From an uncultured delta proteobacterium (GTDB lineage: Bacteria; Desulfobacterota; RBG-13-43-22), in assembly GCA_963711835.1 (NCBI GenBank), contig CAVQFQ010000008.1, positions 32,001-96,000 of the forward strand: a DNA stretch of 64,000 nucleotides, in the 5' to 3' direction. Shown piece after piece: positions 27,550 to 59,925 of the stretch (position 1 is its first letter; each line of letters opens with the position of its first letter). Position numbers and translations under genes: made by a program. The notes under the pieces were generated by a model that made no database searches, had not been told where the DNA came from, and was given only the letters and a program-made list of their open reading frames with translations.

Positions 27550-27594
27550 AGCTTACCTCTTCCTCAACGGATGTTGGAAATCGATGACCTTCTT

Positions 27595-28362: not shown

Positions 28363-28371
28363 TGGCTACCT

Positions 28372-30675: not shown

Positions 30676-30743
30676 TTTCCTGTTCCTCGTTTTTTTGCGG
30701 ATAATTTAATGACCTTGATTAGGATGATCCCGGCCGATTCCTT

Positions 30744-41705: not shown

Positions 41706-42089
41706 TTGTTCTCCCAGATGTTTCAAGCGGCCCTGCATGATTTTTTTTACGTGCTCCTGTTTTTGCTGGTGGCCCTTATTTTCGCCGTGATACCGATCGT
41801 CCTTTCCGTCTATGTGGCCCCCCATGTCTACGGAGAAAAACGGCGCACTACCTATGAAAGCGGTATGCCTCCGGTGGGCACGGCCTGGATCCAGTTCGGG
41901 GCCTCCTATTATCTCTTTGCCCTGATCTTTCTGGCCTTCGATGTGGATGTGCTCTACCTTTTTCCGGTGCTGATAGCTTATGAAAGGAATGGCCAGTATT
42001 TTCAACTCCTCGAACTGGCCATCTTCCTCTTTCTGATCTCCTTGACCATCGTTTATGCCTGGCGGAAGGGGGTATTTCGATGGAGGTAA
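41706..42089 (+). CDS. nuoA: Complex I subunit A
   Basis: [27 protein letters not shown]. Confidence 0.92.
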
Positions 42090-42595
42090 AAGAGACCCCG
42101 GCGATTGTCAAATTTGCCCCGGTCCAGGATATCCTTAATCTGGCCCGGGCCAGTTCTCTCTGGCCCATGACTTTCGGGATCGCCTGTTGTTCCATAGAAA
42201 TGATGGCCGCCGGCATGGCCCGTTTTGATCTGGATCGTTTTGGAATCATCTTTCGATCCACCCCCCGCCAGTCGGATGTCATGATTGTGGCCGGCACCAT
42301 TTCCCATAAATTTGTCCCGACCATCAAGACCCTTTGGGATCAAATGCCGGCCCCCAAATGGGTCATTGCCATGGGCAATTGCGCCATCTCCGGAGGCCCT
42401 TTTGCCTACGACGGGCAATATGCCATCGTCAACGGGGCGGATAAAATCGTCCCGGTGGACATCTATATCCCCGGCTGCCCCCCGCGTCCCGAGGGGCTGA
42501 TCCAGGGATTACTTCAACTACAAAAAAAGATTACCCGAGGCATGCTGGATGCTAACCGAAGGGCAGAAAAAGCAGCTCGAAGATCTAAAAAATAG
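42080..42595 (+). CDS. nuoB: Complex I subunit B
   Basis: [33 protein letters not shown]. Confidence 0.95.
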
Positions 42596-43043
42596 CCTGG
42601 GACAGGCTGTTCCCGAAGCGGAGTTGCTGGAAAGCCTCTATGGCCGGACCGGCTATCATCTGGAGGTGCGCCTTATCATGCGCGGCATGCGCCGAGTGGC
42701 CCGGGAAATGGAGGCCAGGCGTTTTTACCTCGAGACCATTACCGCGGTCGATTTTCTGGAAGCCTTTGAATTAATTTATCTTTTTGCCTGTTATGACCAA
42801 GAGCCCTTTCGAGTCATGACCCGGATCCGACTCCCCAAAGAGGCTTCGGCCTTTACCCTCTCGGCCATCTACCCGGAAGCCATCTGGTTGGAACGGGAGG
42901 TTTACGACTTTTTTGGGATCCGTTTCCTGGGGCACCCCAACCTGAAACGGATCCTCTTGCCCGACGAGGTGGATTATTTCCCTTTGTTAAAGACCTTCGG
43001 CAAAACCAGGGTCACCGAAGAAATCGACGATATCTTATGCTGA
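42549..43043 (+). CDS. nuoC: Complex I subunit C
   Basis: [26 protein letters not shown]. Confidence 0.92.
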
Positions 43044-44164
43044 ATATCCATACCATTGACAATAAGACCCTGAACGAGCGTATTTACTACCTCAACCTGG
43101 GACCGCAGCATCCCAGCACCCACGGGGTCTTGCGCCTTTTCCTGACCCTGGACGGCGAGGTGGTTATCGAAGCCGAGCCGATTATCGGTTACTCACACCG
43201 CGGCCATGAAAAGATGGCGGAAAACAGGACCTACGAACAATTTTTACCCAATCCCCCGCGCATGGATTATCTCTCCGGCCTCCTTTTCAACCAGGGCTAC
43301 TGCATGGCGGTGGAAAAACTCTGCGGGATTCAGGTCCCTAAAAGGGCCGAATACATCCGGGTTATTACCTCGGAATTAAATCGGATCTCCAGTCATCTTT
43401 TGGGCGTCATGGCCTTTGTCATGGACCTGGGGGCCTTTACCCCCTTTCTTTACGGCTGGGACGATCGGGAAGCGGTCCTGGACCTCTTGGAACGGGTCAG
43501 CGGATCCCGTCTGACCTATTGTTATAACCGTTTCGGCGGGGTGCGCAACGACATCGACAAGGCATTTTATGACGGCACCCGCCGTTTTATCGAACGGTTG
43601 CGGGGCCGTTTCAAGGATTATTTCGATCTGATCCACGAAAATGTCATTTTTATCAACCGGACCAAAGGGGTTGGGATCATCACCCCGGATATGGCCCTGG
43701 AGTACGGGGTTACCGGTCCCTCCTTAAGGGCCGCCGGGGTCCTCTATGACCTGCGCAGGAATGAGCCTTACTCCGCTTACCCGGAATTCGATTTTGAGAT
43801 TCCGGTCCGGGAAGCCGGGGATGTCATGGCCCGCTATGAGGTTCGGATCGCCGAGATGGAGCAAAGCCTGACTATCATCGAGCAGGCCTTGGACGGACTG
43901 CCCCCGGGTCCGATTCGGGCCCGCGTTCCCCGCTTTGTCACCCCTCCGGCCGGAGACTGCTACCTGGCCATGGAAAGCGCCCGAGGGGCCGTAGGCTTCT
44001 ATATCGTCAGCGACGGAACGCGCATCCCCTACCGGATCAAGGTGCGGGCCCCCTCCTTTTCCAACTTATTCATCCTAACCAAAATTCTGCCGGGTAACTT
44101 TGTGGCCGATACCATTGCCATCCTGGGCAGTATCGATGTGGTGGTTCCGGAGATTGATCGGTGA
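43037..44164 (+). CDS. nuoD: Complex I subunit D
   Basis: [27 protein letters not shown]-terminal EIDR; no NiFe CxxC motifs. Confidence 0.95.
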
Positions 44165-45180
44165 GTATTTCAGAAATCGCCATAGTCTATGATACCTTGC
44201 AAGTCCTGAAGGCCGTCTACGGATTCCTGGGCTATGACGTCACCGTAGCCCTCATCGGCTTGTTGCTGATCGTGGGATTTATCCAGGTCAACGCCCTCTT
44301 TCTGATCTGGCTGGAACGCAAAGTGGCCGGCCATATCCAACTCCGCCCCGGCCCCATGGAGGTCGGGCCCCACGGCCTGCTCCAGACCCTTGCCGACGGA
44401 ATAAAATTGATGGGCAAGGAATTGATAACGCCCCAGTTGGCGGACAAACCGCTCTACTGGCTGGCTCCTATCATCATCTTAATCCCGGCCCTGGTCTGTT
44501 TCGTGGTCATCCCCTTCAGCCCCCTGCTGCAGGTGCGGGATATCAATGTGGGCATCCTGCTGATATTTTCGATTTCCAGTCTGACGGGTTTGTCCATCCT
44601 GATGGGGGGCTGGGCCTCAAACAACAAATACTCCCTGATCGGGGCGGCCCGTTCGGTGGCTCAGATCATCGCCTATGAGATCCCTCTGCTGCTGTCCACC
44701 ATGTCGGTCATCATCATGTGCAATTCCTTCAAGATGAGTGAAATCATCGCCGCCCAGTCCTCGGTCTGGTATATACTTTACCAGCCCATTGCCGCCGTCA
44801 TCTTCCTGGTCGGGGCCACCGCCGAAACCAACCGGGCTCCCTTCGATCTGGTCGAGGCCGAATCGGAACTGGTTTCCGGGTTCCATACCGAATATACCGG
44901 TATGCGTTTTGCCCTTTTTTTCCTGGCCGAATACAGCAATATGTTTATTACCGCAGCCATGGCCACGACCCTCTTTTTTGGAGGCTGGCAAGGGCCGGTT
45001 TTTCCGGGACTGATCTGGTTTATGATTAAATGTTATGCCCTGATCTTCGGGGTCATCTGGGTCCGCTGGACCTTTCCCCGGCTCCGTTTTGATCAATTGA
45101 TGAATTTCGCCTGGAAGATACTGATCCCGGTGGCCCTGCTTAATCTGATGATTACGGCCATTGTGGTCAAATTGGTCTAA
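44161..45180 (+). CDS. nuoH: Complex I subunit H
   Basis: WLERKV...[35 protein letters not shown]. Confidence 0.95.
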
Positions 45181-45184
45181 TGAT

Positions 45185-45643
45185 ATGACAGCTCCGTCCA
45201 ACCTCAAACAATACGGTCAGGAGATCCTGTTCGGATCCAAGAGCCTGGTGATCGGCATGTGGATCACTTTCAAGCGGCTTTTGCAGCGGATCGTCACCGT
45301 CCAGTACCCCCGGCAGAAACTGACCATGTTCCCGAATTTCCGGGGACATATCGAGGCCATTCGTTTTGACGACACCAAGAGCCACCATTGTGTGGCCTGC
45401 GGCCTCTGCGCCCGCATCTGCCCCTCCCATGTCATTAAGGTCCAGGGCGCCAAGACCAAGGCCAGTGATCTCAAGCGCGGCCAGAATTATTTTATCGACT
45501 TTACCAAGTGCAGTCTTTGCGGTCTCTGTGTGGATGTCTGTCCGGAAAACACCCTGCGTTTCTCCCGGGAGTATGAACTGGCCTTTTTCTCCCGCTGGGA
45601 CGGCGTCATCGATCTCATGAAGCGCTTGGAGGAATCCAAATGA
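45185..45643 (+). CDS. nuoI: Complex I subunit I
   Basis: TVQYP, CVACGLCARICP, CSLCGLCVDVCP. Confidence 0.93.
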   Translation: MTAPSNLKQYGQEILFGSKSLVIGMWITFKRLLQRIVTVQYPRQKLTMFPNFRGHIEAIRFDDTKSHHCVACGLCARICPSHVIKVQGAKTKASDLKRGQNYFIDFTKCSLCGLCVDVCPENTLRFSREYELAFFSRWDGVIDLMKRLEESK

Positions 45644-46173
45644 ACAACCTCTCGGCTACTATTTCTCCCTGGCTGCTGGCCCAAGCCGCCCTTTGGTTCA
45701 CCATCCTGATTACCTTGACCGGGTCGCTGCTGGCCGTCATCCCCAAGAATATCATCCATAATGTCATGGGCCTGGCCCTGGCCATGTTCGGTGTCACCGG
45801 GATCTATCTTTACCTGGGAAGCCAGTTCGTGGCCATGATGCAGCTCTTGATTTATGTCGGGGCCATTTGTGTCACCTATATCTTTGCCATTATGCTCTCG
45901 CCGCCTCTGCAACAGGAACTGCCCAAGAGGAGAAGGGCCAAATTTCTCTCGGCCCTGCTGGTCAGCGGCGTAACTTTTGTCGCCATGGCCCTCATGGTGG
46001 CCCGACTGCCATGGGAACCGATCCGGACCGTCTCCCGGGATTGGTCGATCAAGACCTTAGGCCAGGCCTTGCTGACCCGTTATTTTCTGGTCTTTGAATT
46101 AATTTCCTTGCTCCTGGCCATAGCCATTATCGGGGCCATCCTGATCGCCGGGCTGGACCGGGAAAGGGAGTAG
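45640..46173 (+). CDS. nuoJ: Complex I subunit J
   Basis: QLLIYVGAI, FELISLLL. Confidence 0.92.
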   Translation: MNNLSATISPWLLAQAALWFTILITLTGSLLAVIPKNIIHNVMGLALAMFGVTGIYLYLGSQFVAMMQLLIYVGAICVTYIFAIMLSPPLQQELPKRRRAKFLSALLVSGVTFVAMALMVARLPWEPIRTVSRDWSIKTLGQALLTRYFLVFELISLLLAIAIIGAILIAGLDRERE

Positions 46174-46175
46174 CC

Positions 46176-46484
46176 ATGGAAAATCTTTCGCTTTATTTAC
46201 TCCTCGGGGCCCTGATGTTCTGCATCGGCCTCTTCGGGTTGCTGCAACACAACTCCTTAATCGGCATGTTGATTGCCACGGAACTTATTTTAAACGGTGC
46301 CGGTATGAATTTTATGGCCTTCAATATGTTTTTATCCCCCGACCCGGTTCTGGGGCAGGCCTTTACGCTCTTCATCATGGGGGTCGCCGCCGCCGAGGCC
46401 GCCATTGCCTTGAGCATCATCATTGCCGTCTACCGCCGCTTTAGGGAAATCCGAGTGGACAGCGTCAGCGAACTGAAAGGATAA
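46176..46484 (+). CDS. nuoK: Complex I subunit K
   Basis: ELILNG, VAAAEAAIAL. Confidence 0.93.
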   Translation: MENLSLYLLLGALMFCIGLFGLLQHNSLIGMLIATELILNGAGMNFMAFNMFLSPDPVLGQAFTLFIMGVAAAEAAIALSIIIAVYRRFREIRVDSVSELKG

Positions 46485-46503
46485 GACCTTCGATCACCCG
46501 CTC

Positions 46504-48000
46504 ATGGAAACCATCTTCTCCATAAAACCCTTCCTAACGGTCTTAATCCCAAGCCTGGCCTCCCTGCTCATTTTGGCCACACCGAAAAAGCCGAATCTGC
46601 GGGAGGCCTGGTCGATCCTGGGGGCGGTGGCCACCTGTTTGACCGTGCTCTCCATGACCCCCCTGGTCCTGGCCGGCAAAGCTGTGGAATACACCCCGTT
46701 TGTGATTTTACCGGGGATCTCGATGAAGTTCCGGGTCGATGCCCTGGGCATCCTCTTCGGGACCATCGCTTCCTTTCTCTGGATCTTGGTTTCCTTCTAC
46801 AACATCGGTTACATGCGCTCCCTGAAGGAACATGCCCAGACCCGTTACTACTTCTGCTTTGCCGTAGCCATCGTCGGCGCCGTGGGAGTGGCCTTTTCCG
46901 GCAATCTCTTCACCCTCTATCTCTTTTATGAAATCATTACCATTTTCACCTATCCTCTGGTGGCCCATCATCAGGATGACGAGGCCTATGAGGGGGGCCG
47001 GAAGTATATGGTTTACCTGACCGGGACCGCCAAGGGCTTCTTCCTGCCGGCCATCATCCTGACCTATATCCTCTGCGGCACCCTGGACTTTGCCCCCTCG
47101 GGGATCGTCAAGGGAATTTTCCCAGCCTCGGCCGACCCGACCCTGGTCACCATAACCTATGTCCTTTATCTGGCCGGCTTTGCCAAGGCCGCCATCATGC
47201 CCTTTCACAACTGGCTGCCCTCGGCCATGGTGGCCCCTACCCCGGTTAGCGCCCTGCTCCATGCCGTGGCCGTGGTCAAGGCCGGGGTCTTCTGTACCAG
47301 CCGGGTCATGCTTTCGGTCTTCGGGGTGGAACTCCTGGACCAGTTGAATCTCGGCATCCCCACCGCCTATGCGGCCTCCTTTACTATTTTAGCGGCCTCG
47401 ATCATCGCCCTGAGCAAGGATGACCTCAAGGCCCGGCTGGCCTATTCCACGGTCAGCCAGCTTTCCTATATTATTTTGGGGGTGGCCCTGCTGACCCCCA
47501 GCGCCGTCACCGGCGGGCTGATCCATATGGCCAATCATGCCTTCTCCAAGATTACCCTCTTTATGTGCGCCGGATCCATTTATGTGGCCCTGCACACCAA
47601 AAAAATCAGCGAGATGGGGGGTATCGGCCGGAAGATGCCCTTTACCATGGGTGCCTTCGGCGTGGCCTCCCTGAGCATGATCGGGGTTCCCCTGGTCTGC
47701 GGTTTTGTGACCAAGTGGTATATCGCCCTGGGGGTGCTGGAGTCCCAGCACCATTTCTTCCTCCTGGTTTTGCTGGCCAGCACTATTTTGAATACCGGTT
47801 ATTTCATCCCGGTGGTCTTTAAAGCCTTCTTCGATCGCCCCGGCCCGGCACTGGAAAGCAGCGGGCATTCCAACCCGGAAGGTCTCCGGGAGGCCCCGGC
47901 TTTCATGGTCGTTCCCCTGGTCCTGACGGCCCTGGGCTCGATCCTGTTTGGCTTGTATCCCGATTATTTTTTGAATATCGTCAAGGCGGTTTTCCAATGA
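46504..48000 (+). CDS. Antiporter-like subunit (MrpD/NuoL-core type, no lateral-helix tail)
   Basis: LFYEII, KAAIMPFHNWLPSAMVAPTPVSALLH, LAYSTVSQL, NHAFSK, GFVTK. Confidence 0.9.
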   Translation: METIFSIKPFLTVLIPSLASLLILATPKKPNLREAWSILGAVATCLTVLSMTPLVLAGKAVEYTPFVILPGISMKFRVDALGILFGTIASFLWILVSFYNIGYMRSLKEHAQTRYYFCFAVAIVGAVGVAFSGNLFTLYLFYEIITIFTYPLVAHHQDDEAYEGGRKYMVYLTGTAKGFFLPAIILTYILCGTLDFAPSGIVKGIFPASADPTLVTITYVLYLAGFAKAAIMPFHNWLPSAMVAPTPVSALLHAVAVVKAGVFCTSRVMLSVFGVELLDQLNLGIPTAYAASFTILAASIIALSKDDLKARLAYSTVSQLSYIILGVALLTPSAVTGGLIHMANHAFSKITLFMCAGSIYVALHTKKISEMGGIGRKMPFTMGAFGVASLSMIGVPLVCGFVTKWYIALGVLESQHHFFLLVLLASTILNTGYFIPVVFKAFFDRPGPALESSGHSNPEGLREAPAFMVVPLVLTALGSILFGLYPDYFLNIVKAVFQ

Positions 48001-48245
48001 ACTGGGCCCAACCGATGGAGTTTTTACGAAATCATCTTAAGGTGCTGATCTGGATCCTCTATCTCCTCATGGGGGCGGCGGTTCTTTTCGATATTTTCAT
48101 ACCCCGCCATGAGGCCCACTTTTTTGGAGATAAGATCCCCGGCTTCTGGTCCGGCTTCGGGCTGATCGCCTGTATCCTTCTGATCCGCATCATGAAAGGC
48201 CTGGCTCACAGCCTGCTGATGAAAAAAGAGGATTACTATGGATAG
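47997..48245 (+). CDS. Small two-TM protein between antiporter subunits
   Basis: 82 aa, IPGFWSGFG...KKEDYY; overlaps both neighbours (translational coupling). Confidence 0.8.
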   Translation: MNWAQPMEFLRNHLKVLIWILYLLMGAAVLFDIFIPRHEAHFFGDKIPGFWSGFGLIACILLIRIMKGLAHSLLMKKEDYYG

Positions 48246-50001
48246 CTGGCTTCATCCGGCCCTTTTCTTCATCCTGGGCGCCTTTTTTATCCCCCTCTTA
48301 AAGGGCCGGATCAAACAGATCTATGTCCTGGTACTGCCGGCAGTGGCTTTTTACGATGTCATCAATATGGTCCCCGGTGTCTATGGGGAAATCCAATATC
48401 TGGGCTTCAACATCATCCTGGGCCGGGTAGACCGCCTGACCCTGGTCTTTGCCCATGTCTTCACCCTGATGGCTTTCCTGGGCGTCCTTTACGGCCTTCA
48501 CGTTAAGGAAGACGGGCACCTCATGGCGGCCTTTTTTTATGTGGGGGGTTCCCTGGGAGTGGTTTTTGCAGGAGACTATCTGACGGTCTTCATCTTCTGG
48601 GAGATGATGGCCTTCGCCTCGGTCTTCCTGATCTGGTACCGCAAGGTCCCGGCTTCCATCTCGGCCGGCTTCCGCTATCTCCTGATGCACGTCTTCGGCG
48701 GCCTGCTGCTGCTGGCCGGGATCTTTCTCCATTATAAAAATACCGGGAGCCTGGCTTTTGAACTCATCCCCAAGGCCGGAGCCGGCCCGGCTGAATATTT
48801 AATTTTGGCCGGTTTTGCCCTCAATGCCGCCGTGTTCCCCTTGCATGCCTGGCTGCCGGATGCCTATCCGGAAGCCACCGTAACCGGGGCTGTTTTCATG
48901 TGCGCCTTTACGACCAAGACGGCCGTCTATGTCCTGGCCCGGGCCTTTCCCGGCTATGATATCCTGGCCGTTATGGGTACGGCCATGACCATCTATGGGG
49001 TCTGCTACGCCACCATCGAAAACGATATGCGGCGGATTCTCTCTTACCACATCATCAGCCAGGTGGGCTACATGGTGGCCGGCGTCGGTATCGGCACGGA
49101 ACTGGCCATCAACGGCGCCTCAGCCCATGCCTACGCCCACATCCTCTATAAGGCCCTGCTCTTCATGGGGGCCGGCGCGGTGATCCAGATGACCGGTAAA
49201 TCCAAACTGAACGAACTGGGCGGTCTCTATAAATATATGCCCCTTTCCCTGATCTTTTACTGCGTGGGCGGGATCTCCATTTCCGGTTTTCCCCTGTTCA
49301 GCGGCTTTGTCAGCAAATCCATGATCGTGGCCGGGGCCGGCGAGGCCCATCATCCGGTCCTGATGGTCCTGATGCTCCTGGCCTCGGTGGGGACCTTCCT
49401 TTCAGTCGGATTGAAGCTCCCCTATTTCGCCTGGTTCGGCAAGGATTGCGGTCTCCGCCCCAAAGAACCGCCCCGGAATATGCTTTGGGCCATGGGTTTG
49501 ACCTCCCTGCTCTGCTTTATCATCGGCGTTTATCCTAAAGTCCTTTATGACCTATTGCCCTTTCCGGTCCATTATCAGCCCTATACCGGCACCCACCTCT
49601 CCGAAACGATCCAGATCCTGCTTTTTACCGGGCTGGGGTTTTTCCTGCTGCTGAAAAGGCTGACCCCGGAACCGAAGATCAATCTGGACTTCGACTGGTT
49701 CTACCGCGCCGGGACGTCCGGGTTTATGTGGCTGGCCCGTAAACCGATCCAGGGCTTCGATTCCGGATGGGGAGAGCTTTACCGCACCGTGGCCCTCAGG
49801 ATCATGATGCTCCTGGCCGCTTTTTTCGCCTGGTTTGACCGCTGGGGCATCGACGGGGTGGTGGATAACCTCGCTTACGGTACCCGGGGGGCGGGCAATA
49901 AGCTTCGCCGGGTTCAGAGCGGCAATATTCAATATTATTTGGGCTTGGCCCTGGTCACCTTTTTTATTATCATCGGGGTCTATCTGCTTCTATCCTTTTG
50001 A
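48238..50001 (+). CDS. Antiporter-like subunit (Mrp-type core with NuoL-like C-terminal helix)
   Basis: FWEMM, LNAAVFPLHAWLPDAYPEA, GFVSK; tail FDRWGIDGVVD...LRRVQSGNIQYY. Confidence 0.9.
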   Translation: MDSWLHPALFFILGAFFIPLLKGRIKQIYVLVLPAVAFYDVINMVPGVYGEIQYLGFNIILGRVDRLTLVFAHVFTLMAFLGVLYGLHVKEDGHLMAAFFYVGGSLGVVFAGDYLTVFIFWEMMAFASVFLIWYRKVPASISAGFRYLLMHVFGGLLLLAGIFLHYKNTGSLAFELIPKAGAGPAEYLILAGFALNAAVFPLHAWLPDAYPEATVTGAVFMCAFTTKTAVYVLARAFPGYDILAVMGTAMTIYGVCYATIENDMRRILSYHIISQVGYMVAGVGIGTELAINGASAHAYAHILYKALLFMGAGAVIQMTGKSKLNELGGLYKYMPLSLIFYCVGGISISGFPLFSGFVSKSMIVAGAGEAHHPVLMVLMLLASVGTFLSVGLKLPYFAWFGKDCGLRPKEPPRNMLWAMGLTSLLCFIIGVYPKVLYDLLPFPVHYQPYTGTHLSETIQILLFTGLGFFLLLKRLTPEPKINLDFDWFYRAGTSGFMWLARKPIQGFDSGWGELYRTVALRIMMLLAAFFAWFDRWGIDGVVDNLAYGTRGAGNKLRRVQSGNIQYYLGLALVTFFIIIGVYLLLSF

Positions 50002-50044
50002 AATATGAATTTTCAGGTTTAAATAGACAGGGAAGTTTACCTTA

Positions 50045-51541: not shown

Positions 51542-51615
51542 ATGGAAACGGATAGGGGTCCGCTGAAAAAGGTCCAAGCGCCAATGATTTCGGAAAGAAT
51601 TAAGGAATAAACTTC

Positions 51616-53034
51616 ATGGATCTGCGGTTATTCATACCTGAGCTCTATCTTCTTTTTCTGGCCTTGGTCTTTTTTGCCCAATCCCTCTGGAAATCTCCGG
51701 CCAAATTAAATCAATCCCTGGCCCTGGGTTTATCGGCCTTCGGGGTAATCCTCAGTTTGTTAACCTTGAACCAGTCCGGGGAGCTTTTTTACCAGGCCTA
51801 CCGGGTAGATCTTTTTTCACAGGGCTTTAAAATCCTGATTAGCCTGGGCCTCTTTCTGATCATTGTCTTGGGCCGGGACTTAAAGAGTGTTGATGAGCGC
51901 CTCCATCCGGAATACTTCATGTTCCTGGGTTTAAGCTCCCTGGGGTTGACGCTCATGGTCAGCAGTGTGGAACTCCTGACTATTTTTATCGCCATGGAGC
52001 TTTCCTCCTTTTCCCTTTATGTCCTGATCCCTTTGCGGAAACAGACCTTTTCTACCCAGATGGAAGCGGCCATTAAGTACATCATCTTTGGAGCGGCCTC
52101 AACCGGGATCATGATTTTCGGGATGAGTTATGTTTTCGGCGTCGCCCAAACCACCTATTTGGCTGAGCTGATCCGGAAATTCCCCCTCTTGATCAGCCAG
52201 CCGGTAGCCCTGACTGGATTGATTATGGTCCTGGCCGGTTTTTTCTTTAAACTGGCGGTAGTGCCCTTCCATTTCTGGACCCCGGATATTTATCAGGGGG
52301 CGGCCAATGAAACGACCAGCTTTATTGCCACCATGCCCAAGCTGGCCGGGTTGGCCCTTTTGATCCGCCTGGTTTCCATAGGGGGTCCCCAGGCTACGGC
52401 CATGATCCAGGTTCTGGTCCTCCTGGCCGCTGTCTCCATGACCTTCGGGAATTTGGTGGCCCTGGTTCAAAAAGACCTAAAACGCATCCTGGCCTATTCC
52501 AGTATCGCCCATGCCGGCTATGTCCTGCTGGGGGTTTTAAGCCTGAATACCATCGGTTTTGCGGCCGCGGTCTATCATATTACAGCCTACCTGCTGATGA
52601 ACCTGGCTTGTTTCCTGGTTATCTGCAGCGTCTCACGGCAGGGGGAGGATGTCTCGGTCGGGGACCTCTCCGGCCTGTATCGCCGTTCCCCCCTCCTGGC
52701 CTTTACCCTGGCCGTGGGGGCTTTTGCCTTGGCCGGGATCCCCCCGACAGCCGGATTTACCGGAAAGTTTTTCCTTTTTACCGCGGCCTTGGACCAGGGG
52801 CACCTGGCCCTGGTGATCATCGCCGCGGTGAATACGGCCATTTCCATTTTTTATTATTTGAATCTGGTTCGCGCGGCTTACGGCCAGGATCCCGACGGGT
52901 TGCCGGCGGTCTCTTTGAATGTTCCATTGCGGCTTTTGAGTCTGGCCCTGATCGCCGCTATTTTTCTCCTGGGGGTCTTGCCGGCCTGGTTTATTGACTT
53001 GGCCCGAAAGGCCTGCAGTGCCATTATTTTATAA
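51616..53034 (+). CDS. nuoN: Complex I subunit N
   Basis: EAAIKY, FKLAVVPFHFWTPDIYQGA, LAYSSIAHAGY, GIPPTAGFTGK. Confidence 0.94.
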   Translation: MDLRLFIPELYLLFLALVFFAQSLWKSPAKLNQSLALGLSAFGVILSLLTLNQSGELFYQAYRVDLFSQGFKILISLGLFLIIVLGRDLKSVDERLHPEYFMFLGLSSLGLTLMVSSVELLTIFIAMELSSFSLYVLIPLRKQTFSTQMEAAIKYIIFGAASTGIMIFGMSYVFGVAQTTYLAELIRKFPLLISQPVALTGLIMVLAGFFFKLAVVPFHFWTPDIYQGAANETTSFIATMPKLAGLALLIRLVSIGGPQATAMIQVLVLLAAVSMTFGNLVALVQKDLKRILAYSSIAHAGYVLLGVLSLNTIGFAAAVYHITAYLLMNLACFLVICSVSRQGEDVSVGDLSGLYRRSPLLAFTLAVGAFALAGIPPTAGFTGKFFLFTAALDQGHLALVIIAAVNTAISIFYYLNLVRAAYGQDPDGLPAVSLNVPLRLLSLALIAAIFLLGVLPAWFIDLARKACSAIIL

Positions 53035-53110
53035 ACCATGAAGAGTGAAGGCAGAATTTGGTTAAAAAGATAAGAATAAATTTTAAAACCATTTAGTCTA
53101 AGAATCTATT

Positions 53111-53602
53111 ATGTTAGCTTCCAATCACCTTCAAGATCAGGACCTGAAACTACTGGAATCCATAGTGGCCGAACGGGGAACCCATCCCTCTTCGGTCCTT
53201 CAAATCCTGCTGGATATCAACCATCACTACCATTACCTCCCTCGGGAAAGTCTGGAATGGGTTTCCCGGCAGGTCCGAATGCCCATCAATCAGATATTCA
53301 GCGTGGCTACCTTCTTCAAGGTCTTCAGTCTGAAACCCAGGGGCCGGACCTTGGTCCATGTCTGCACCGGAACAGCCTGCCATGTTAAAGGAACGCCCCG
53401 CATCCTCGATCGCCTGGAAAAGGAATTAAACCTGAAACCCGGGGAGACGACGGCGGACCTGGCTATCACCCTGGAAACGGTCAACTGTGTCGGGGCCTGC
53501 GCTTCAGCCCCGGTCGTCCGTGTCGATGAGGCGACCTTCAGTGAAATGACGCCCTCGAAGGCAGCGGACCTGGTCAAAGAACTATTGAGAAGAGAGTCTT
53601 AA
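53111..53602 (+). CDS. nuoE: NuoE/HydC-like 2Fe-2S subunit
   Basis: VATFF, CTGTACHVKG, NCVGAC. Confidence 0.92.
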   Translation: MLASNHLQDQDLKLLESIVAERGTHPSSVLQILLDINHHYHYLPRESLEWVSRQVRMPINQIFSVATFFKVFSLKPRGRTLVHVCTGTACHVKGTPRILDRLEKELNLKPGETTADLAITLETVNCVGACASAPVVRVDEATFSEMTPSKAADLVKELLRRES

Positions 53603-56600
53603 TGGAGCAGTTATTTATGAACCGGCTAACCAGCCTGCAGGATCTTGAACCCTTACGCCAGTCCATTCTGGAAAAGCGCCGGAAGGTTCGGAAGCGCATC
53701 CGGGTCTGCATCGGACCGGCCTGCCACTCCCAGGGAGGCGAAACCCTGTCCCGGATGATAGAAGCCGCCCTCAAAGAACGCGGGGCAGCGGACGATCTTA
53801 TGGTCACGCCTACCGGGTGCCACGGTTTTTGCGCCCGGGGCCCGGTCATGGTGATCGAACCGGAAAATATCTTTTACGAACGGGTCCGGTCGGAGCGGAT
53901 CCCCGAGATCGTCGAAAAGTCGATCCTGGGGGATGAACTGCTGGAAGATCTCCTTTACCTGGACCCGGAGACCAACAAACGGATCGTTCACGAAGCGGAG
54001 ATCCCTTTTTACGCCCGCCAGGAACAGATCGTTTTCAAGGACTCGGGCCGGAATTTTCCAACCGATATCGACGATTATATCTCCCGGGGCGGCTACTCGG
54101 CCCTGGTCAAAGTCCTTTCCGAACTGACCCCTGAAGAAGTCATTGAAGAGGTAAAAATTTCCGGTTTGCGGGGCCGGGGCGGGGGCGGTTTTCCGACCGG
54201 GACCAAATGGGAATCCTGCCGCAAGTCCCGGGGAGTCTTGAAATATGTCATGTGCAACGCCGACGAGGGCGATCCCGGGGCCTATATGGACCGGGCCTTG
54301 CTGGAGGGCAATCCCCATCAGGTCCTGGAAGGCATGATTGTCGGTGCCTATGCCATCGGCGCCAGGGAAGGGTATCTCTATGTCCGCTACGAATACCCCA
54401 TGGCCACCCAAAATGCCATCTGGGCCATCAAACAGGCCAAGGAATACGGATTGCTGGGTGAAAATATCTTAGGCACCCCTTTCAGCCTCGAACTTTTCGT
54501 CACCCGGGGGGCCGGGGCCTTTGTCTGCGGGGAATCAACCGCCCTGATGGCCTCTCTGGAGGGCAAGATCGGGGAACCGCGGGGCAAGCATATCCATACC
54601 GTGGAAAAAGGACTCTGGAACCGTCCCAGCAATCTCAACAATGTCGAGACCTGGGCTACGGTTCCCCTGATCATCAACAACGGGGGGCAATGGCTGGCCT
54701 CCATCGGAACCGAGCGGAGCAAGGGGACCAAGATCTTTTCTCTGGTAGGCAAGATCAACAATCCCGGCCTGGTCGAAGTGTCCATGGGAACCCCCTTGAG
54801 AAAGATCATCTACGACATCGGCGGGGGTGTACCGGGCGGCAAAGCCTTCAAGGCCGTCCAGTCCGGAGGCCCTTCCGGGGGCTGCATCCCAAAAGACCTG
54901 ATCGATCTGGCGGTAGATTTCGAAAAACTGAAAGAGGCCGGTTCCATGATGGGTTCAGGCGGTATGATCGTCATGGACGAGGATACCTGCATGGTCGATG
55001 TGGCCCGCTATTTCCTGAATTTTCTGGAGGAGGAATCCTGCGGGAAATGCGTCCCCTGCCGTATGGGCGTCAAGCGCATGCATGAAATAGTCACCCGGAT
55101 CTGCCTCGGGCAGGGGCGGGAGGAAGACCTTGAAAAACTGAAAGATCTGGGAGAAACGATCAGCGAGGCCGCGCTTTGCGGATTGGGAAAATCCTCGGCC
55201 AACCCGGTTTTATCGACCCTAAAATATTTTCGGGCCGAATATGAGGCCCATATTAAAGACAAGGAATGCCCGGCCGGTGTCTGCCGCCGGCTTTCGGCCG
55301 CCCCCTGTCAGAAAGCCTGTCCGGCCGGAATCGATGTCCCCTCCTATGTAGCCCTGATCTCCGATGCCCATTATGAAGAGGCCCTAGAAATTGTCCGTCA
55401 GGACAACCCTTTTCCCTCGATCTGCGGCCGTATCTGCCAGCACGGCTGCGAGGTCACCTGCACCCGCGGCGAGATCGACCATTCCATCGACATCATGCAC
55501 TTGAAGCGCTTCATTTCCGATTTTGAAGCGACCCGGCCCTGGCGCCTTCCCGAACGGATCATCCCGACCCAAAACGAGAAAGTGGCGGTCGTCGGGGGAG
55601 GACCGGCCGGTCTTTCCGCCGCCTATTTTCTAGCCAGAAGAGGCTATCCGGTAACCCTCTTCGAGGCTGCGCCGGTCCTGGGGGGTATGCCGGCCCTGGC
55701 TATCCCCGATTTCCGCCTTTCTAAAAACGCCTTGCAACGGGATATCGACTATATCCTGGCCCTGGGAATAGAGGTTAAAACCAATACCCCGGTCGGGGAA
55801 AACCCCTCTCTGGAGGATCTTAAAAAACAAGGCTATGAAGCCATCTTTCTGGCCACCGGGGCCGACAAAGGCCTTGAAATGGGGGTTTTCGGGGAAAACC
55901 TCTACGCCGGCGTCGTCGATGCCCTGGATTACCTCAAGGCCTATCATTTGAAACAGTTGATCAACCCGGGAAAGGAAGTCGTCGTCATCGGCGGGGGCTA
56001 CGCCGCCATGGACGCCGCCCGGATGGCCTTGCGGCTGGGGGCCAAGGTTCACCTTCTTTTCCGGCGCTCCGAAGAGGAGCTGCCGGCCGATCCCCTGGAG
56101 CTGGAGGCGGCCAAGGAGGAGGGGATCCGGTTTCATTTTCTGACCACCCCCACAAAATTGCTGGCCAAGAACAACCGGGTAACCGGGGTCGAATGCATCG
56201 GGCTCGAGATCGCCGCTGCCGACACCAGCGGCCGCAAGCGGGTTTTGCCCAGGGAAGGGACCGAATTCATCCTGCCCGCAGATCTGGTTATCCCGGCCGT
56301 CGGCCAGACGCCGGATATTTCCCCCTTCAGGGGAATGGCCTTATCGATCTCACCCTGGAACCTTCTCCAGGTCAACCCTGAAACACTCCAGACCAATTGG
56401 CCCCATATCTTCGCCGGCGGCGATGTCACCACCGGCTCCGCTTCGGTGATTGAAGCGGTGGCGGTAGGGAAAAAGGCCGCCTGGGCTGTTCATAATTTCC
56501 TTTCCGGGACCACCGGCAGAATGCCTTTAGCCAAGCCCCGCCTCCGCCTGGAAAGGGTGGCGGTATCTCCCGACGAACCTCAGGCTACGGAAAGACCGGC

Positions 56601-56721
56601 CATGACCCTGGCCCCCGCCTCGGAAAGAAAAAAATCTTTCGAAGAAGCAGAGCTGGGCTTGAGTGAACGACAAGCGGTAACCGAAGCCAGGCGCTGCCTG
56701 CGCTGCGATCTGACGGAGTAA
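53602..56721 (+). CDS. NuoF/HydB-like NADH-FMN subunit fused to GltD-like FAD/NADPH oxidoreductase
   Basis: CIGPAC...GCHGFC, GLRGRGGGGFPTG, NADEGDPGAYM, ESCGKCVPCR; then APCQKACP, CGRICQHGCEVTC, GGGPAG, GGGYAA..RRS, AGGD, RCLRC. Confidence 0.92.
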   Translation: MEQLFMNRLTSLQDLEPLRQSILEKRRKVRKRIRVCIGPACHSQGGETLSRMIEAALKERGAADDLMVTPTGCHGFCARGPVMVIEPENIFYERVRSERIPEIVEKSILGDELLEDLLYLDPETNKRIVHEAEIPFYARQEQIVFKDSGRNFPTDIDDYISRGGYSALVKVLSELTPEEVIEEVKISGLRGRGGGGFPTGTKWESCRKSRGVLKYVMCNADEGDPGAYMDRALLEGNPHQVLEGMIVGAYAIGAREGYLYVRYEYPMATQNAIWAIKQAKEYGLLGENILGTPFSLELFVTRGAGAFVCGESTALMASLEGKIGEPRGKHIHTVEKGLWNRPSNLNNVETWATVPLIINNGGQWLASIGTERSKGTKIFSLVGKINNPGLVEVSMGTPLRKIIYDIGGGVPGGKAFKAVQSGGPSGGCIPKDLIDLAVDFEKLKEAGSMMGSGGMIVMDEDTCMVDVARYFLNFLEEESCGKCVPCRMGVKRMHEIVTRICLGQGREEDLEKLKDLGETISEAALCGLGKSSANPVLSTLKYFRAEYEAHIKDKECPAGVCRRLSAAPCQKACPAGIDVPSYVALISDAHYEEALEIVRQDNPFPSICGRICQHGCEVTCTRGEIDHSIDIMHLKRFISDFEATRPWRLPERIIPTQNEKVAVVGGGPAGLSAAYFLARRGYPVTLFEAAPVLGGMPALAIPDFRLSKNALQRDIDYILALGIEVKTNTPVGENPSLEDLKKQGYEAIFLATGADKGLEMGVFGENLYAGVVDALDYLKAYHLKQLINPGKEVVVIGGGYAAMDAARMALRLGAKVHLLFRRSEEELPADPLELEAAKEEGIRFHFLTTPTKLLAKNNRVTGVECIGLEIAAADTSGRKRVLPREGTEFILPADLVIPAVGQTPDISPFRGMALSISPWNLLQVNPETLQTNWPHIFAGGDVTTGSASVIEAVAVGKKAAWAVHNFLSGTTGRMPLAKPRLRLERVAVSPDEPQATERPAMTLAPASERKKSFEEAELGLSERQAVTEARRCLRCDLTE

Positions 56722-56726
56722 GGTCT

Positions 56727-57455
56727 ATGCCCGGATCCAGGCCTCGTATTGATGAACCGAAAACCCCGCTGGGACTGGTCAAGCTTTATGAAAAACCCCA
56801 GATCACCGTCTGCGCCGGTCCGGCCCCCCACTATGAATGCGGGGGAAAAGGCCTCTATTCCGGTCTTTTTTCCGAAGCCAACCGATTAAACATTCCCCTC
56901 GCTTTAGCGCCGGGGAAATGCGGCTGTAGCGGATCCTGCCTGAAAGGTCCTTATCTCAGCCTGCCCAGAATGGGTCTTTTTTACCAGCAGGTCACGACCG
57001 AGCATATCCCCTTTATCCTGAAGGAGACCATACTCCAGGGAAAGATCCTTTTCCCCATCCTGCGCCTGGATCATCTCCAATCCATAAGGGGGGACCTGAT
57101 CTGGGAGAAATCCTCACGCTGCCTCATGACCCTGGATGCTTCATATTGTATGGTTCAGGTAGCCGAGTACCTCATTAAATTTCATGCTGAAGAATCCTGC
57201 GGCAAGTGCACCCCTTGCCGCCTGGGCATTAAGCGCTTGACCGAGGTCATTGAAGGGATCGGACGGGGACGGGCGAATCCGGAGGCCCTCTCGGAAATGG
57301 AAACGCTGACGGCCTTGATGACCCAGGCGGCTTATTGCGCCTTTGCCGGAAAGGCTTCGGATATCATCATGGCCATCCTCTCCTATTTCAGAGAAGAGTT
57401 TGAAGCCCATATTAAAGAGAAACGCTGTCCGGTCGGGGCCTGTAAGATGTTTTAA
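56727..57455 (+). CDS. Thioredoxin-like ferredoxin fused to NuoF C-terminal 4Fe-4S domain (mini-NuoF)
   Basis: VCAG..EC...CGCSGSCLKGP; ESCGKCTPCR...YC; AHIKEKRCPVGAC; no FMN/NADH domain. Confidence 0.85.
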   Translation: MPGSRPRIDEPKTPLGLVKLYEKPQITVCAGPAPHYECGGKGLYSGLFSEANRLNIPLALAPGKCGCSGSCLKGPYLSLPRMGLFYQQVTTEHIPFILKETILQGKILFPILRLDHLQSIRGDLIWEKSSRCLMTLDASYCMVQVAEYLIKFHAEESCGKCTPCRLGIKRLTEVIEGIGRGRANPEALSEMETLTALMTQAAYCAFAGKASDIIMAILSYFREEFEAHIKEKRCPVGACKMF

Positions 57456-57458
57456 AAA

Positions 57459-57540
57459 GCTATCAGCGGTCAGCCGTCACCAATCCCCCTTCCTCGGGGT
57501 GGTCGTTGCTGATCGCTGATTACTGACGGCTTAACGCTGC
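57459..57540. repeat. Heptamer-periodic imperfect palindrome (tcagc/gctga type)
   Basis: tcagcggtcagccgtca ... gctgatcgctgattactgacggct; related half-site gctgaccgctgac near 1455. Confidence 0.55.
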
Positions 57541-57559
57541 TTTAACAGGAGATTTAATC

Positions 57560-59794
57560 ATGTCCAAGATTCACCTGACCATTAACGGCCAGCCGCTGGA
57601 GGCCGAATCCGGTCAAACAATTCTCCAGGTTGCCGAAAGCTCCGGCATCCGTATCCCGACCCTTTGTTATCATCCGGCCCTGCCCCCGGAAGAATCCTGC
57701 CGCATCTGCGTGGTTGAGTTGTTTAAAGGGAAATGGAGTTCCTTGGTGGCGGCCTGCGTTTACCCGGCCCGGGAAGGGATGGTTATCGAAACCGATACCC
57801 CCCAGGTTCACAAGGCCCGCCGGACCATCCTGGAATTGATTTTATCAGACCACCCCAGTGATTGCATGACCTGCAACTCTACCGGAAACTGCGAACTTCA
57901 GGATCTGGCCTATGAATACGGCATCAAGGAAGTCACCCTCGGCGGCCAGTCCCATTCCTATCCCATAGATCCTGATCCGAACCCCTTCATCCATTGGGAT
58001 ATGAATAAGTGCGTCATGTGCCGCCGCTGTATCCGGGCCTGTTCCGAAGTCCAGTGTGCCCATGTCCTGACCAAGGCCGAGCGGGGTTTTAATCAACGAA
58101 TTTCAACGGCTTTCGGGGAACTCCTGGAAAATTCAGGCTGCGAATTCGACGGCCAATGTCTGGCTTTTTGCCCGGTGGATGCCTTATCCGAGAAAGCCCC
58201 GCGGGGGAAGGCCCGCACCTGGGAGATGGGAAAGACCCGGACCGTCTGTCCCTTATGTGCCTGCGGCTGCCTGTTCGACCTGAACACCAAGGGAGATCAG
58301 GTCCTCAAAGTGACCTCCAATTTCAGTTCCCCGGCTAATCTGGGCGCCCTCTGTAACCGGGGCCGGTTTGGTTACGAATACCTGAATCATCCCGATCGGC
58401 TCAAGGCGCCCCTTTTGAAAAAGGGAAATGATTGGGTCGAAGCCGAATGGGAGGAGGCCCTGGAGGTAATCGCGGATAAGTTCCGGGCCGTTCAAGAGAA
58501 GTTCGGTCCGGAGGCCCTGGGTTTCCTCCTTTCCCCTTCTTTGACCAATGAGGAACTGTATCTCTGGCAGAAATTCGCCCGGTCATCCCTGAAAACAAGC
58601 CGCTTGGCCCATCCGGAGGCCTGCCTATGGGCCCCGGTAAAAAAAATAATGGACGAACGTCTCGGCCTCTCGGGCATGACCAATCCCACCGGGGACTTGA
58701 TCAACAGCTCCGGCATACTCCTCCTGGGCTCCCATATCATGACCACCCACCCCATCGCCGGGATCAAGATTCGCCAGGCCGTCCAAAAAGGAGCCCGGCT
58801 TTTGACGATCGATAGTCAGGCCCATAGCTTCAGCAGCCTGGCCTATCAGGCCCTGATCGCCCCCTCCGGGACCGAGGAACTGATCCTGAACGGCATCCTT
58901 TCCTTCCTAGTTCAACAAACCAAATGGGATCAGGAATTTGTGGCCCAAAGGACGTCCGGTTTGGAGGGCCTCCGGGAAGCCCTGTCCAAAACAACCCTGG
59001 AGAGCACAGCGGCCGAAACCGGACTGCCCTTAAAGAGCCTGCAGGAAGCCGCGGACTTTGTGGCCCATCACCGGCCCCTGGCCCTGATCTGCCCGCCTCC
59101 CTTGAACGGCCGTCCTTTCCCCCCTGCCCTGGTGGAATCGGCCTTGAACCTGCAGCTCCTGATGGGAAACCTGGGTAAGTCCGGGGGAGGTCTGGATTTC
59201 CTGGTTCCCCAGGCCAACGGCTTAGGGGCCTGGGAGTTCGGCGCCGGCCGTCCGGACTATACCGACGAGGAGCTCTGGTCGGATCTGAAGGCCGGAAACA
59301 TTAAAGCCCTATTCCTGGCCGCCGAAGATCCCTACGGCAACAGCCACCTCTCGCCGGCCCAGCAGGCCCTTCTCAATACCTTGGGCGATGAATCCTTTTT
59401 GGTCGTCCAGGATCTCTTTTTGAGCGAGGCGGCCCGAAAGGCCCAGGTCGTGTTGCCGGCCCTGTCTTACTCGGAAAAAACCGGCACCTTCTTAAATATG
59501 GAGCGCCGAGTCCAATTGCTTAAACCGGGCCTTCCGGTCCAGGGCAAAGGGCTTTGGACCGGGGAACTGCTGGGCCAACTGGCCCTTCGTATGGGTTTGT
59601 CCTTCCCGGTTCTATCGGCGGCTGAAACCTTTCAGGAAATAGCCCTGACTTTCCCCCTCTGGTCCGGCTTGAATTACAGCCGCCTAGAAAAAGAAGGGCT
59701 TTCATGGCCCTGCCCGGATCCCGATTCCAAGGGAACGCCGATCTTATTTGAATCGGATTTTCCGGTCGGGAAGGTCCGGTTAGTAAAAGCCTAA
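57560..59794 (+). CDS. NuoG-like / FdhF-derived Fe-S subunit (probably non-catalytic)
   Basis: IPTLC...CRIC...AAC, HPSDCMTC..C, CVMCRRC...C, CEFDGQC...CP, CPLCACGC...LC; degenerate Mo-ligand region. Confidence 0.88.
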   Translation: MSKIHLTINGQPLEAESGQTILQVAESSGIRIPTLCYHPALPPEESCRICVVELFKGKWSSLVAACVYPAREGMVIETDTPQVHKARRTILELILSDHPSDCMTCNSTGNCELQDLAYEYGIKEVTLGGQSHSYPIDPDPNPFIHWDMNKCVMCRRCIRACSEVQCAHVLTKAERGFNQRISTAFGELLENSGCEFDGQCLAFCPVDALSEKAPRGKARTWEMGKTRTVCPLCACGCLFDLNTKGDQVLKVTSNFSSPANLGALCNRGRFGYEYLNHPDRLKAPLLKKGNDWVEAEWEEALEVIADKFRAVQEKFGPEALGFLLSPSLTNEELYLWQKFARSSLKTSRLAHPEACLWAPVKKIMDERLGLSGMTNPTGDLINSSGILLLGSHIMTTHPIAGIKIRQAVQKGARLLTIDSQAHSFSSLAYQALIAPSGTEELILNGILSFLVQQTKWDQEFVAQRTSGLEGLREALSKTTLESTAAETGLPLKSLQEAADFVAHHRPLALICPPPLNGRPFPPALVESALNLQLLMGNLGKSGGGLDFLVPQANGLGAWEFGAGRPDYTDEELWSDLKAGNIKALFLAAEDPYGNSHLSPAQQALLNTLGDESFLVVQDLFLSEAARKAQVVLPALSYSEKTGTFLNMERRVQLLKPGLPVQGKGLWTGELLGQLALRMGLSFPVLSAAETFQEIALTFPLWSGLNYSRLEKEGLSWPCPDPDSKGTPILFESDFPVGKVRLVKA

Positions 59795-59925
59795 CGAAGA
59801 GGTTTGAAGTTTTTTTCACCTCTTAAAGAAATAAAGAAATGGTGTTGGGAGGGACCCCCCAACACCTGGATCCGGGATTCAATTCCCTATCCAACCCGAC
59901 CCTCTAAACCTTGTTTGGGGGCACC

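Follow-up and report, generated by a model that had tools for sequence, protein, structure and literature searches.

No common donor has been found for complex I-like enzymes that lack an NADH module, according to the extract of PMC11238625, in which the Epsilonproteobacterial complex I and headless 11-subunit complexes have an arm without the canonical NADH module and other donors are proposed to enter via extra subunits. Green complex I, encoded by a rhizobial operon, carries, in the partial description with which we compare it, two MrpD-like subunits for NuoL and four antiporter-like subunits. The 2M complex I (Chadwick et al. 2018, as related in extracts of PMC6606698 and PMC9040806) contains one antiporter-like subunit more than usual, and its lateral helix is elongated. 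As far as their abridged accounts go, Stn, NfnABC and NsoABC (PMC7483475; PDB 8oh5, 9bov, 9n5u) combine a NuoE-like subunit, a HydB-like subunit, a GltD domain and a cofactor-less G, with NADH and NADPH sites. The locus analysed here resembles each of these systems in part.

The window, that is the whole stretch of DNA that was analysed (64,000 nucleotides, from an uncultured delta proteobacterium), holds 17 ORFs on the + strand between 41706 and 59794, in the order nuoA to G-like given by the initial annotation. Neighbouring ORFs overlap or are separated by at most 104 nt (AP2-M 43, M-N 74, N-E 76, miniF-G 104). Pfam and NCBIfam searches back A, B, C, D, H, I, J, K, M, N, E, F::GltD and G-like, so that the claimed co-oriented run holds and the core complex I set (A, B, C, D, H, I, J, K, M, N) is found in full. 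The same searches agree with the annotated ribF upstream of the run and with qrcABCD, which is over cut-offs; these genes occupy 26305-31322 of the other strand, some 10 kb from the run. We give a probability of about 0.5 to the following reading of the sequence: a quinone-type complex I with a published four-subunit arm, in which miniF would be an adaptor joining a G-type subunit and NAD(P)H flavoproteins to the quinone module. The features are:

41706..42089, +: nuoA (PF00507)
42080..42595, +: nuoB (PF01058, TIGR01957 over cut-off; N2 cluster cysteine motifs)
42549..43043, +: nuoC (PF00329)
43037..44164, +: nuoD, quinone type (PF00346, PRK06075 over cut-off; no CxxC, His/His/Tyr motifs)
44161..45180, +: nuoH (PF00146, PRK06076.1-2 over cut-off)
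45161..45643, +: nuoI (two [4Fe-4S] motifs)
45640..46173, +: nuoJ (PF00499)
46176..46484, +: nuoK (PF00420)
46504..48000, +: AP1, MrpD-like antiporter subunit, 498 aa (PRK08375.1-1 over cut-off)
47997..48245, +: 82-aa membrane protein (no family match; conserved position)
48238..50001, +: AP2, antiporter-like subunit, 587 aa (PRK12668 over cut-off)
50045..51541, +: nuoM (TIGR01972 over cut-off)
51616..53034, +: nuoN (TIGR01770 over cut-off)
53111..53602, +: NuoE/HydC-like [2Fe-2S] subunit (PF01257)
53602..56721, +: F::GltD, HydB-type NuoF fused to a GltD-like FAD/NADP(H) domain
56727..57455, +: miniF, proposed adaptor, 242 aa (NADH_4Fe-4S as only family domain)
57560..59794, +: G-like subunit (family matches and cluster motifs)
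59911..62382, +: sensor kinase (CxxCH motif, HAMP, PAS)
62508..63866, +: sigma-54 response regulator

A four-antiporter arm of published design

AP1 and AP2 fall far under the NuoL cut-offs and over those of MrpD-like models (AP1 on PRK08375 at 788 bits, cut-off 663; AP2 on PRK12668 at 771 bits, cut-off 564), and a single canonical NuoL is absent. AP1 keeps every key residue (TM5 Glu, TM7 Lys, TM8 His/Lys, TM11 His/His/Lys, TM12 Lys) and has no lateral helix. The position of the 82-aa membrane ORF between AP1 and AP2 is conserved across loci and matches Mrp operons. In AP2 an extended lateral helix (residues 487-560), about 25 residues longer than that of NuoL, precedes the final TM helix. The spacing of the anchor motifs is 51-53 residues in 23/23 AP2 sequences vs 27 in 6/6 NuoL (L028 was measured on the alignment; L025 and L208, where the pattern mis-anchored, were left out), and because the linker ahead of the anchor is shorter in AP2, the net lengthening counted from TM15 is smaller. 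From these traits AP2 probably has a place in the membrane arm; it would be the distal subunit, its helix bracing AP1, M and N.

AP2 keeps Glu122, and its TM7 lysine is replaced by Asn196 in 23/23 homologues. In the available part of PMC7419157, LysTMH7 is described as absolutely conserved and essential in antiporter-like subunits. Of the 'four pumping units' first claimed, the four antiporter-like subunits are there; with Asn in place of the essential lysine of the fourth, four working pumps are unproven. Since every four-subunit arm examined has lost LysTMH7 in its helix-bearing subunit, these arms offer a natural test of pump number.

The arm itself is not new: it follows the published green complex I design and is common in the phylum (AP2 relatives in 177/401 genomes), which removes the novelty first ascribed to it. 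Most four-subunit operons examined have no multi-flavin module, the 11 loci sampled being headless as a rule, and miniF and G also stand on three-pump operons. The special pairing of long arm and multi-flavin module that had been suggested is thus not borne out.

The input module

E, F and G are each under the cut-offs of TIGR01958, TIGR01959 and TIGR01973, and canonical NuoEFG is absent. F::GltD consists of an N-terminal [2Fe-2S] domain, an FMN/NADH domain, an N3 cluster and a GltD-like FAD/NADP(H) domain, the last occupying the place of HydB's 2x[4Fe-4S] domain, whose CxxCxxCxxxCP motif is absent. A motif search found both NADH/FMN and NADPH/FAD motifs in F::GltD, in agreement with the two sites proposed initially; the module is multi-flavin in having two predicted flavin sites, both in this protein and none in miniF. 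G-like has intact N1b, N5, N4 and N7 motifs, and a cysteine of its second ferredoxin-type cluster is changed to Asp. It has neither a Mo/W-ligand Cys/Sec nor the C-terminal molybdopterin dinucleotide domain, and does not qualify as a formate dehydrogenase alpha subunit; it scores 366 bits on the NuoG model vs 325 on Fdh-alpha, both below cut-off. Among six G-type N-termini of this genome, only this G-like subunit and the C19 fusion have an acidic N1b motif in common.

The nuoN-nuoE gap is weakly bridged by one RNA-library contig of a relative (52973-53478), which carries 27 substitutions and 22 gap letters and may be DNA. The three RNA runs are contigs of one study, mostly 90-95% alike (X2 share 0.17, X3 0.08), and given these small shares and the single source RNA depth was left unused. 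A sequence scan saw no terminator-like site in the gap, and a promoter scan gave 11 sites vs 10.8 ± 3.0 expected, neither result bearing on co-transcription. Downstream, the claimed two-component system is present as kinase and regulator; residues 124-128 of the kinase form a CxxCH motif, a possible attachment site for a c-type heme, while the heme sensing claimed for it is unsupported. The sensor kinase accompanies the E-F::GltD-miniF-G form across loci.

One could suspect two machines here: a soluble Stn-like NADPH:NAD+ transhydrogenase made of E, F::GltD and G, and a headless membrane complex fed by ferredoxin, perhaps via miniF. The domain inventory fits Stn (E, F, GltD and a cofactor-less G), F is structurally closest to bifurcating enzymes of the soluble kind, and both this genome and most others of the class have F::GltD paralogues (46-51% identity) at sites remote from nuo. 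Free-standing E-F-miniF-G modules in L188 and L189 and the prevalence of headless four-subunit operons point the same way. However, G accompanies miniF and nuoN even at loci without E and F, GltD-bearing partners adjoin this operon repeatedly in several lineages, and the 2x[4Fe-4S] domain known from StnB/HydB is missing in F; we consider this scenario distinctly improbable. Stn proper was rejected as an identity for E + F::GltD + G, since GltD is on another subunit and the 2x[4Fe-4S] domain is missing.

On the input side, conservation is highest in miniF

By sequence comparison, the unusual part of the locus is miniF, which is conserved beside such operons in many anaerobes. No other component of the input side is as well conserved, where the first reading had taken miniF as a minor piece. 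It comprises a thioredoxin-like [2Fe-2S] domain, a NuoF N3 domain that corresponds to the G-binding part of HydB/NuoF, and a C-terminal Cys/His/Cys/Cys site; the FMN/NADH domain is absent. All four [2Fe-2S] cysteines are intact in 33/33 copies; 4/33 show decay of the N3 or the C-terminal site, all from genomes with no partner found.

miniF lies downstream of nuoN in 20/20 close loci extending beyond nuoN. The full gene string sought among genomes, with E-F::GltD-miniF-G after nuoN, occurs in 3 of these, and in the other 17 miniF follows nuoN directly. It is present in 19/21 genomes of its own class and in 64/121 of the class around G392. In that second class three-pump operons precede it, and of the 30 best miniF loci 28 are preceded by nuoN and 28 followed by G. 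In the latter class G orthologues are accompanied by miniF in 32/33 cases, miniF is found in 49/55 genomes with either G-type partner, and 51/121 have neither; since related genomes are not independent, these counts overstate the co-occurrence. No partner was found in 15/64 miniF genomes, several of which are fragmented. One miniF homologue is named from Desulfacinum hydrothermale. In a metagenome scan with the miniF alignment, 79/80 loci matched the N3 domain only (ordinary HydB/NuoF).

Partners differ between lineages. A G::GltD fusion, with GltD inserted just behind the N-terminal [2Fe-2S] domain, replaces G in 12/14 genomes of genus g2 and 18/22 of family f74, where it often adjoins nuoA; in L015, L016, L018 and L024 the fusion follows miniF. 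In these two groups miniF is beside nuoN (14/14 and 19/22 genomes) with no G orthologue found. Elsewhere, E, miniF and G are grouped with an F of 68-74% identity, in another order or off nuo (L188, L189, L193), the E-F-miniF-G module of L188 and L189 standing away from nuo. In genus g220, orthologous nuoH occurs in 34/38 genomes and miniF in 4; miniF as an obligatory part of the Q-module was rejected on this ground.

These data bear on a docking of canonical type, the model nearest to the first reading, in which G would sit on NuoI/C/D like NuoG, E and F::GltD would cap it, and miniF would be an alternative cap, e.g. a ferredoxin port. We hold it to be quite unlikely: miniF stays by nuoN in the g2 and f74 genomes despite the missing G orthologue, the GltD of the substitute fusion would sit in the N5-bearing region expected to face NuoI, and in genomes without a partner the [2Fe-2S] motif persists even where that of N3 has decayed. 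In its favor are the four N-type cluster motifs retained by G, the higher score of G on NuoG, the textbook order E-F-G and the likeness of the miniF N3 domain to the G-binding part of HydB/NuoF.

Proposed wiring and direction of electron flow

In the adaptor reading, which we prefer, the N3 domain of miniF would grip the G-type subunit and its [2Fe-2S] domain would touch the quinone module, wiring G to NuoI. HydABC-type enzymes are built around a G dimer. E and F::GltD would connect to miniF via G, possibly through such a dimer; miniF and its G-type partner would be the lasting part, and E + F::GltD a replaceable plug-in. This wiring needs an extra assumption, as the N3 domains of F::GltD and miniF compete for one G site. 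The sequence data also hold a point against an adaptor: miniF is dispensable, as seen in genus g220 and in the modules of L188 and L189 located off nuo. If the reading is true, NADPH would gain a direct, energy-conserving route to the quinone pool, and miniF is a concrete candidate for feeding complex I without an NADH module in anaerobes.

A bolder version, tentative and on balance somewhat unlikely, makes miniF a dedicated docking subunit. With it, a headless complex I would become a socket that accepts soluble enzymes interchangeably: NADH/ferredoxin HydB-type, NADH/NADPH F::GltD-type or a selenocysteine formate dehydrogenase::GltD. The result would be an ion-pumping NADPH:quinone oxidoreductase, which may confurcate and whose distal subunit would work without the TM7 lysine.

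At the quinone end, NuoD has no CxxC, both CxxC NiFe motifs of the group 4 [NiFe] hydrogenase large subunit being absent, and its His/His/Tyr quinone-site motifs are intact, as expected from the quinone type assigned to it. The link to menaquinone was not recovered: a profile search of this 89%-complete genome found none of MqnC, MqnA, MenB and MenD over cut-off; MqnC is over cut-off in 4/21 genomes of the class. The genome contains dsrA and acsB, a second, canonical complex I at C10 and other E/F/G sets at C17 and C23, and these could oxidise NADH instead. In the usual direction, NAD(P)H from organic-carbon oxidation would reduce the quinone pool, which would serve sulfate or sulfite reduction, with a yield of about 3-4 ions per two electrons and not five.

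The docked complex might also work backwards, with ions that flow in at up to five sites driving electrons from quinol to NAD(P)+ and supplying NADPH for the Wood-Ljungdahl pathway; this rival concerns direction and is compatible with either docking model. Transfer from NADH to menaquinone releases about 0.5 eV for each electron pair, which does not suffice to move five ions against 150 mV. The genome has acsB and qrcABCD, a profile search found no RnfC over cut-off in it, and the extracts of PMC9040806 and PMC6606698 propose reverse operation for complexes with extra subunits. Yet AP2 lacks LysTMH7, which makes a fifth ion doubtful, and three-pump arms use the same miniF/G input, which therefore does not require the extra subunit. 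We regard reversal as unlikely.

Comparison with known systems

The partial description of green complex I mentions no miniF, GltD-bearing input or TM7 Lys-to-Asn change. Manganitrophus Complex_I_3 has, in its abridged account, an extra antiporter-like subunit and a lateral helix 26 residues longer (about 25 here). Going by the same extracts, this locus differs from Complex_I_3 and 2M complex I in that its extra subunit is MrpD-like and no second NuoM, the locus having one NuoM only, and in having four subunits, not five.

In the available descriptions of Stn, NfnABC and NsoABC, GltD is inserted in G, whereas here it is fused to F; the Stn B subunit ends in a 2x[4Fe-4S] domain (PMC7483475) that F::GltD lacks; and here, unlike in those enzymes, miniF is an extra subunit and the genes stand behind a nuo operon. 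HydB of the HydABC-type bifurcating enzymes (PDB 7t2r, 7q4v, 8a6t, 9mqx) is nearest to both F and miniF. Of HydB, miniF retains the N-terminal [2Fe-2S] domain, the N3/B1 domain and the C-terminal Cys/His/Cys/Cys site, without the flavin domain, and G-like differs from the enzymes of this type in having no hydrogenase or molybdopterin active site. Finally, the complexes treated in the extract of PMC11238625 are thought to take flavodoxin or ferredoxin, whereas here the input side carries miniF, a separate protein of HydB origin that is associated with GltD-bearing (NADPH) partners.

Operon content and genome setting

The gene string from nuoA to a G-like gene proposed in the initial annotation was confirmed as 17 genuine, tightly spaced ORFs in one orientation. 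Family scans recognised nuoA, B, C, D, H, I, J, K, nuoM and nuoN; AP1 and AP2, two MrpD-like antiporter-like subunits, flank an 82-aa ORF, and nuoN is followed by an E-like protein, a NuoF-GltD fusion (F::GltD), a 242-aa NuoF-like protein without FMN/NADH domain (miniF) and a 744-aa NuoG-like protein (G). NuoD, annotated as quinone-type, indeed retains quinone-site motifs and lacks CxxC.

Features of the window
41706-59794, + strand: nuo run
26305-31322, - strand: qrcABCD, with a QrcB of 767 aa
39074-40117, - strand: 347-aa ORF divergent from ribF, with no Pfam match at E <= 1e-8
59841-59866: 11-pair hairpin between the G and kinase genes, scored as a minus-strand terminator

The hairpin may be the end or a punctuation of the operon. 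The qrcABCD genes are genuine, yet they lie on the opposite strand, about 10 kb from the nuo run; QrcB only just exceeds its cut-off, has similarity to PhsA as well, and may thus be unlike the Desulfovibrio form. As for the heme-sensing two-component system, the kinase does carry a CxxCH motif, while heme sensing itself is only putative.

The window's own genome (G000, 89% complete) contains dsrA and acsB and gave no RnfC match over cut-off. Relatives that bear names put its organism in Desulfobacterota. Besides the window's operon it encodes a second complex I, of canonical type, an Ech-like cluster (six genes; L061, G000:C25) and further E/F/G sets. The second complex I (L060, G000:C10:142700-157500) has fused BCD, E, F, G and a single NuoL, and its NuoM clusters in a quick tree with three-pump operons of the class around genome G392. 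A paralogous G-E-F::GltD cluster (L056, G000:C23:6600-12900; 48% to the window F) precedes a MetV-like (DUF5981) gene, which suggests a link to methylene-THF reductase. HdrA-like and MvhD-like genes lie immediately upstream of an E-F-G(short) set (L057, G000:C17:734000-740700), a possible bifurcating Hdr/Nuo-like complex.

miniF, a flavin-free family and proposed adaptor

The real lead of the operon is miniF, a flavin-free family of putative adaptors in which HydB's N-terminal thioredoxin-like domain runs straight into the N3 domain, the flavin domain that lies between them in HydB being absent. It has 12 conserved ligand positions, including a Cys/His/Cys/Cys set that we take to be HydB's B2/zinc site. 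Close relatives made up 26 of the 50 loci surveyed; 6 stop before or inside nuoN, and all 20 that extend past it carry miniF. In 17 of these it comes straight after nuoN, and the other 3 show the gene order of the window. Within the organism's own class, 19/21 genomes have miniF, these genomes and the surveyed loci being overlapping, not independent, collections. A narrow profile was positive in 18/401 phylum genomes and a wider one in 64/121 genomes of the class around G392, which we infer from one protein name to be Syntrophobacteria.

Among the best 30 miniF loci of that class, 28 have nuoN on the upstream side and 28 have G on the downstream side. In 20 hand-chosen wider loci nuoN precedes miniF in 17, of which 16 show a single NuoL and 6 have G directly next; the others are two stand-alone E-F-miniF-G clusters and one lone copy. 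The proposed pairing of a long arm with the input module is not supported, since miniF also sits on single-NuoL operons. The window clade joins three-pump operons with miniF in the NuoH tree (support 87/89), and a quick NuoM tree separates four-subunit from three-pump arms, which argues that miniF tracks the quinone module and not the long arm. We rejected the idea that this module obligatorily carries miniF: genus g220 has orthologous nuoH in 34/38 genomes and miniF in only 4/38, and three of its nuo operons terminate at nuoN.

We found 217 proteins matching miniF at E <= 1e-40, the names among those listed being domain-level or hypothetical, and two Atlas clusters with automatic names only. 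No description of miniF or of the window combination was found in a mostly open-access literature, whose supplementary operon figures (e.g. PMC4758237) could show it; miniF is undescribed in the main-text portions consulted of PMC4453560, PMC6606698, PMC13490349, PMC4287179, PMC9888536, PMC2825233, PMC11238625, PMC4758237, PMC9040806, PMC7415380, PMC7483475 and PMC7419157.

Partners of miniF

Across the class around G392 (121 genomes), miniF accompanies G orthologues in 32/33 genomes, G::GltD fusions in 37/42 and either partner in 49/55; 15 genomes have miniF with neither, and 51 have none of the three. The partner counts leave out five G matches with E > 1e-136, one partial and four genomes in which the Fdh-type frames are long. 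The [2Fe-2S] cysteines are kept in 33/33 copies. The N3 or C-terminal site has decayed in 4/33, all from genomes where no partner was found; one more partner-less copy (L192) has intact sites. Long Glu/Ala/Pro-rich C-terminal tails (ORFs of 458-654 aa) occur on miniF of L179, L180, L181 and L197, with decayed cluster sites and partner-less genomes.

The G::GltD fusion occurs in 18/21 own-class genomes and follows miniF in four loci (L015, L016, L018 and L024). There, as at L059:6007-10128 (G000:C19), it is a G::GltD::formate-dehydrogenase fusion broken at the ligand position, with no F/E genes seen adjoining it. The break in L015 is a TGA codon in frame, so the fusion is probably a selenocysteine enzyme that carries its own NADP(H) domain.

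Proposed electron path

F::GltD bears FMN/NADH, N3, FAD and GxGxxA NADP(H) motifs, which bears out, as a prediction from sequence, the NADH and NADPH sites annotated earlier. NAD(P)H electrons would enter there, pass through G to the N3 and [2Fe-2S] clusters of miniF, and then travel via NuoI and N2 to quinone, coupled to ion pumping. We give this path, in which every contact is deduced, a probability of about 0.5. The cluster motifs known from NuoG/Fdh are present in G, which lacks the Mo ligand and C-terminal pterin domain. F::GltD has its closest relatives in the HydB-type subunits found in soluble bifurcating enzymes. Docking of G in the canonical manner is unlikely, and so is a separate soluble transhydrogenase. 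In an RNA library one contig of a relative spans the nuoN-nuoE gap, although a contig over two genes does not prove a single transcript.

Potentials are -320 mV for NADH, about -370 mV for NADPH in cells and -74 mV for menaquinone. Two electrons passed to menaquinone as the presumed acceptor would thus release 0.5-0.6 eV. At 150 mV this suffices for 3-4 ions, in agreement with AP2 not adding a full pumping step. Reverse operation, which overlaps with the docking models, is a minority possibility. Although Qrc and Dsr are encoded in the window's own genome, MqnC was found in only 5/21 own-class genomes (4 over cut-off); this class may have an atypical quinone or make its quinone by an atypical pathway.

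Probable place of AP2 in the membrane arm

The anchor-to-anchor distance of the lateral helix is 51-53 residues in 23/23 nuo-type AP2 and 27 in 6/6 NuoL; from first anchor to C-terminus, nuo-type AP2 have 100-106 residues, NuoL 74-75 and Mrp-type AP2 (n=7) 76-82, leaving out three mis-anchored rows. In the AlphaFold model residues 487-560 form a single helix, with low-to-moderate confidence, and the top structural matches of the model are MrpA, NdhF and NuoL. Sequence and model point to AP2 as the putative distal subunit, with a helix that would span the three others; the linker ahead of the anchor is shorter than in NuoL, so the net helix gain from TM15 is smaller. LysTMH7, absolutely conserved and essential according to PMC7419157, is Asn in 23/23 AP2 rows and Lys in AP1, M, N and six NuoL, the other key residues of AP2 being retained. 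The four pumping units initially proposed are therefore not upheld, and the pump count of this arm is doubtful.

Comparison with known systems

The extended arm is a published design: in PMC9040806, green complex I has NuoL replaced by two MrpD-like subunits, as in the window, and PMC7415380 terms its function hypothetical. AP2 relatives (E <= 1e-100) occur in 177/401 phylum genomes, nuo and Mrp operons counted together. In 11 distant loci, hand-chosen from AP2 matches, AP2 belongs to a nuo run that matches the A-to-N order or is similar to it in 10, while one has another order; an Fdh-like gene lies 3' of nuoN in one, and miniF in none. In alphaproteobacterial loci (L047) the AP1-small-AP2 cassette is part of an Mrp operon.

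Orthologues of F::GltD (at least 74%) and of G (at least 63%) each occur in four other own-class genomes and in 0/14 of genus g2. Close F orthologues in another class (68-74%) have the usual 2x[4Fe-4S] domain at their end; either GltD took its place here, or the exchange went the other way. The second half of F::GltD is nearest to the GltD part of StnC/NfnA, and we considered and rejected Stn proper for E, F::GltD and G: according to PMC7483475, Stn has GltD in its G subunit and extra clusters in its B subunit, whereas the window set has GltD on F, and a motif search of F::GltD found no CxxCxxCxxxCP. The window set is therefore Stn-like, not Stn.
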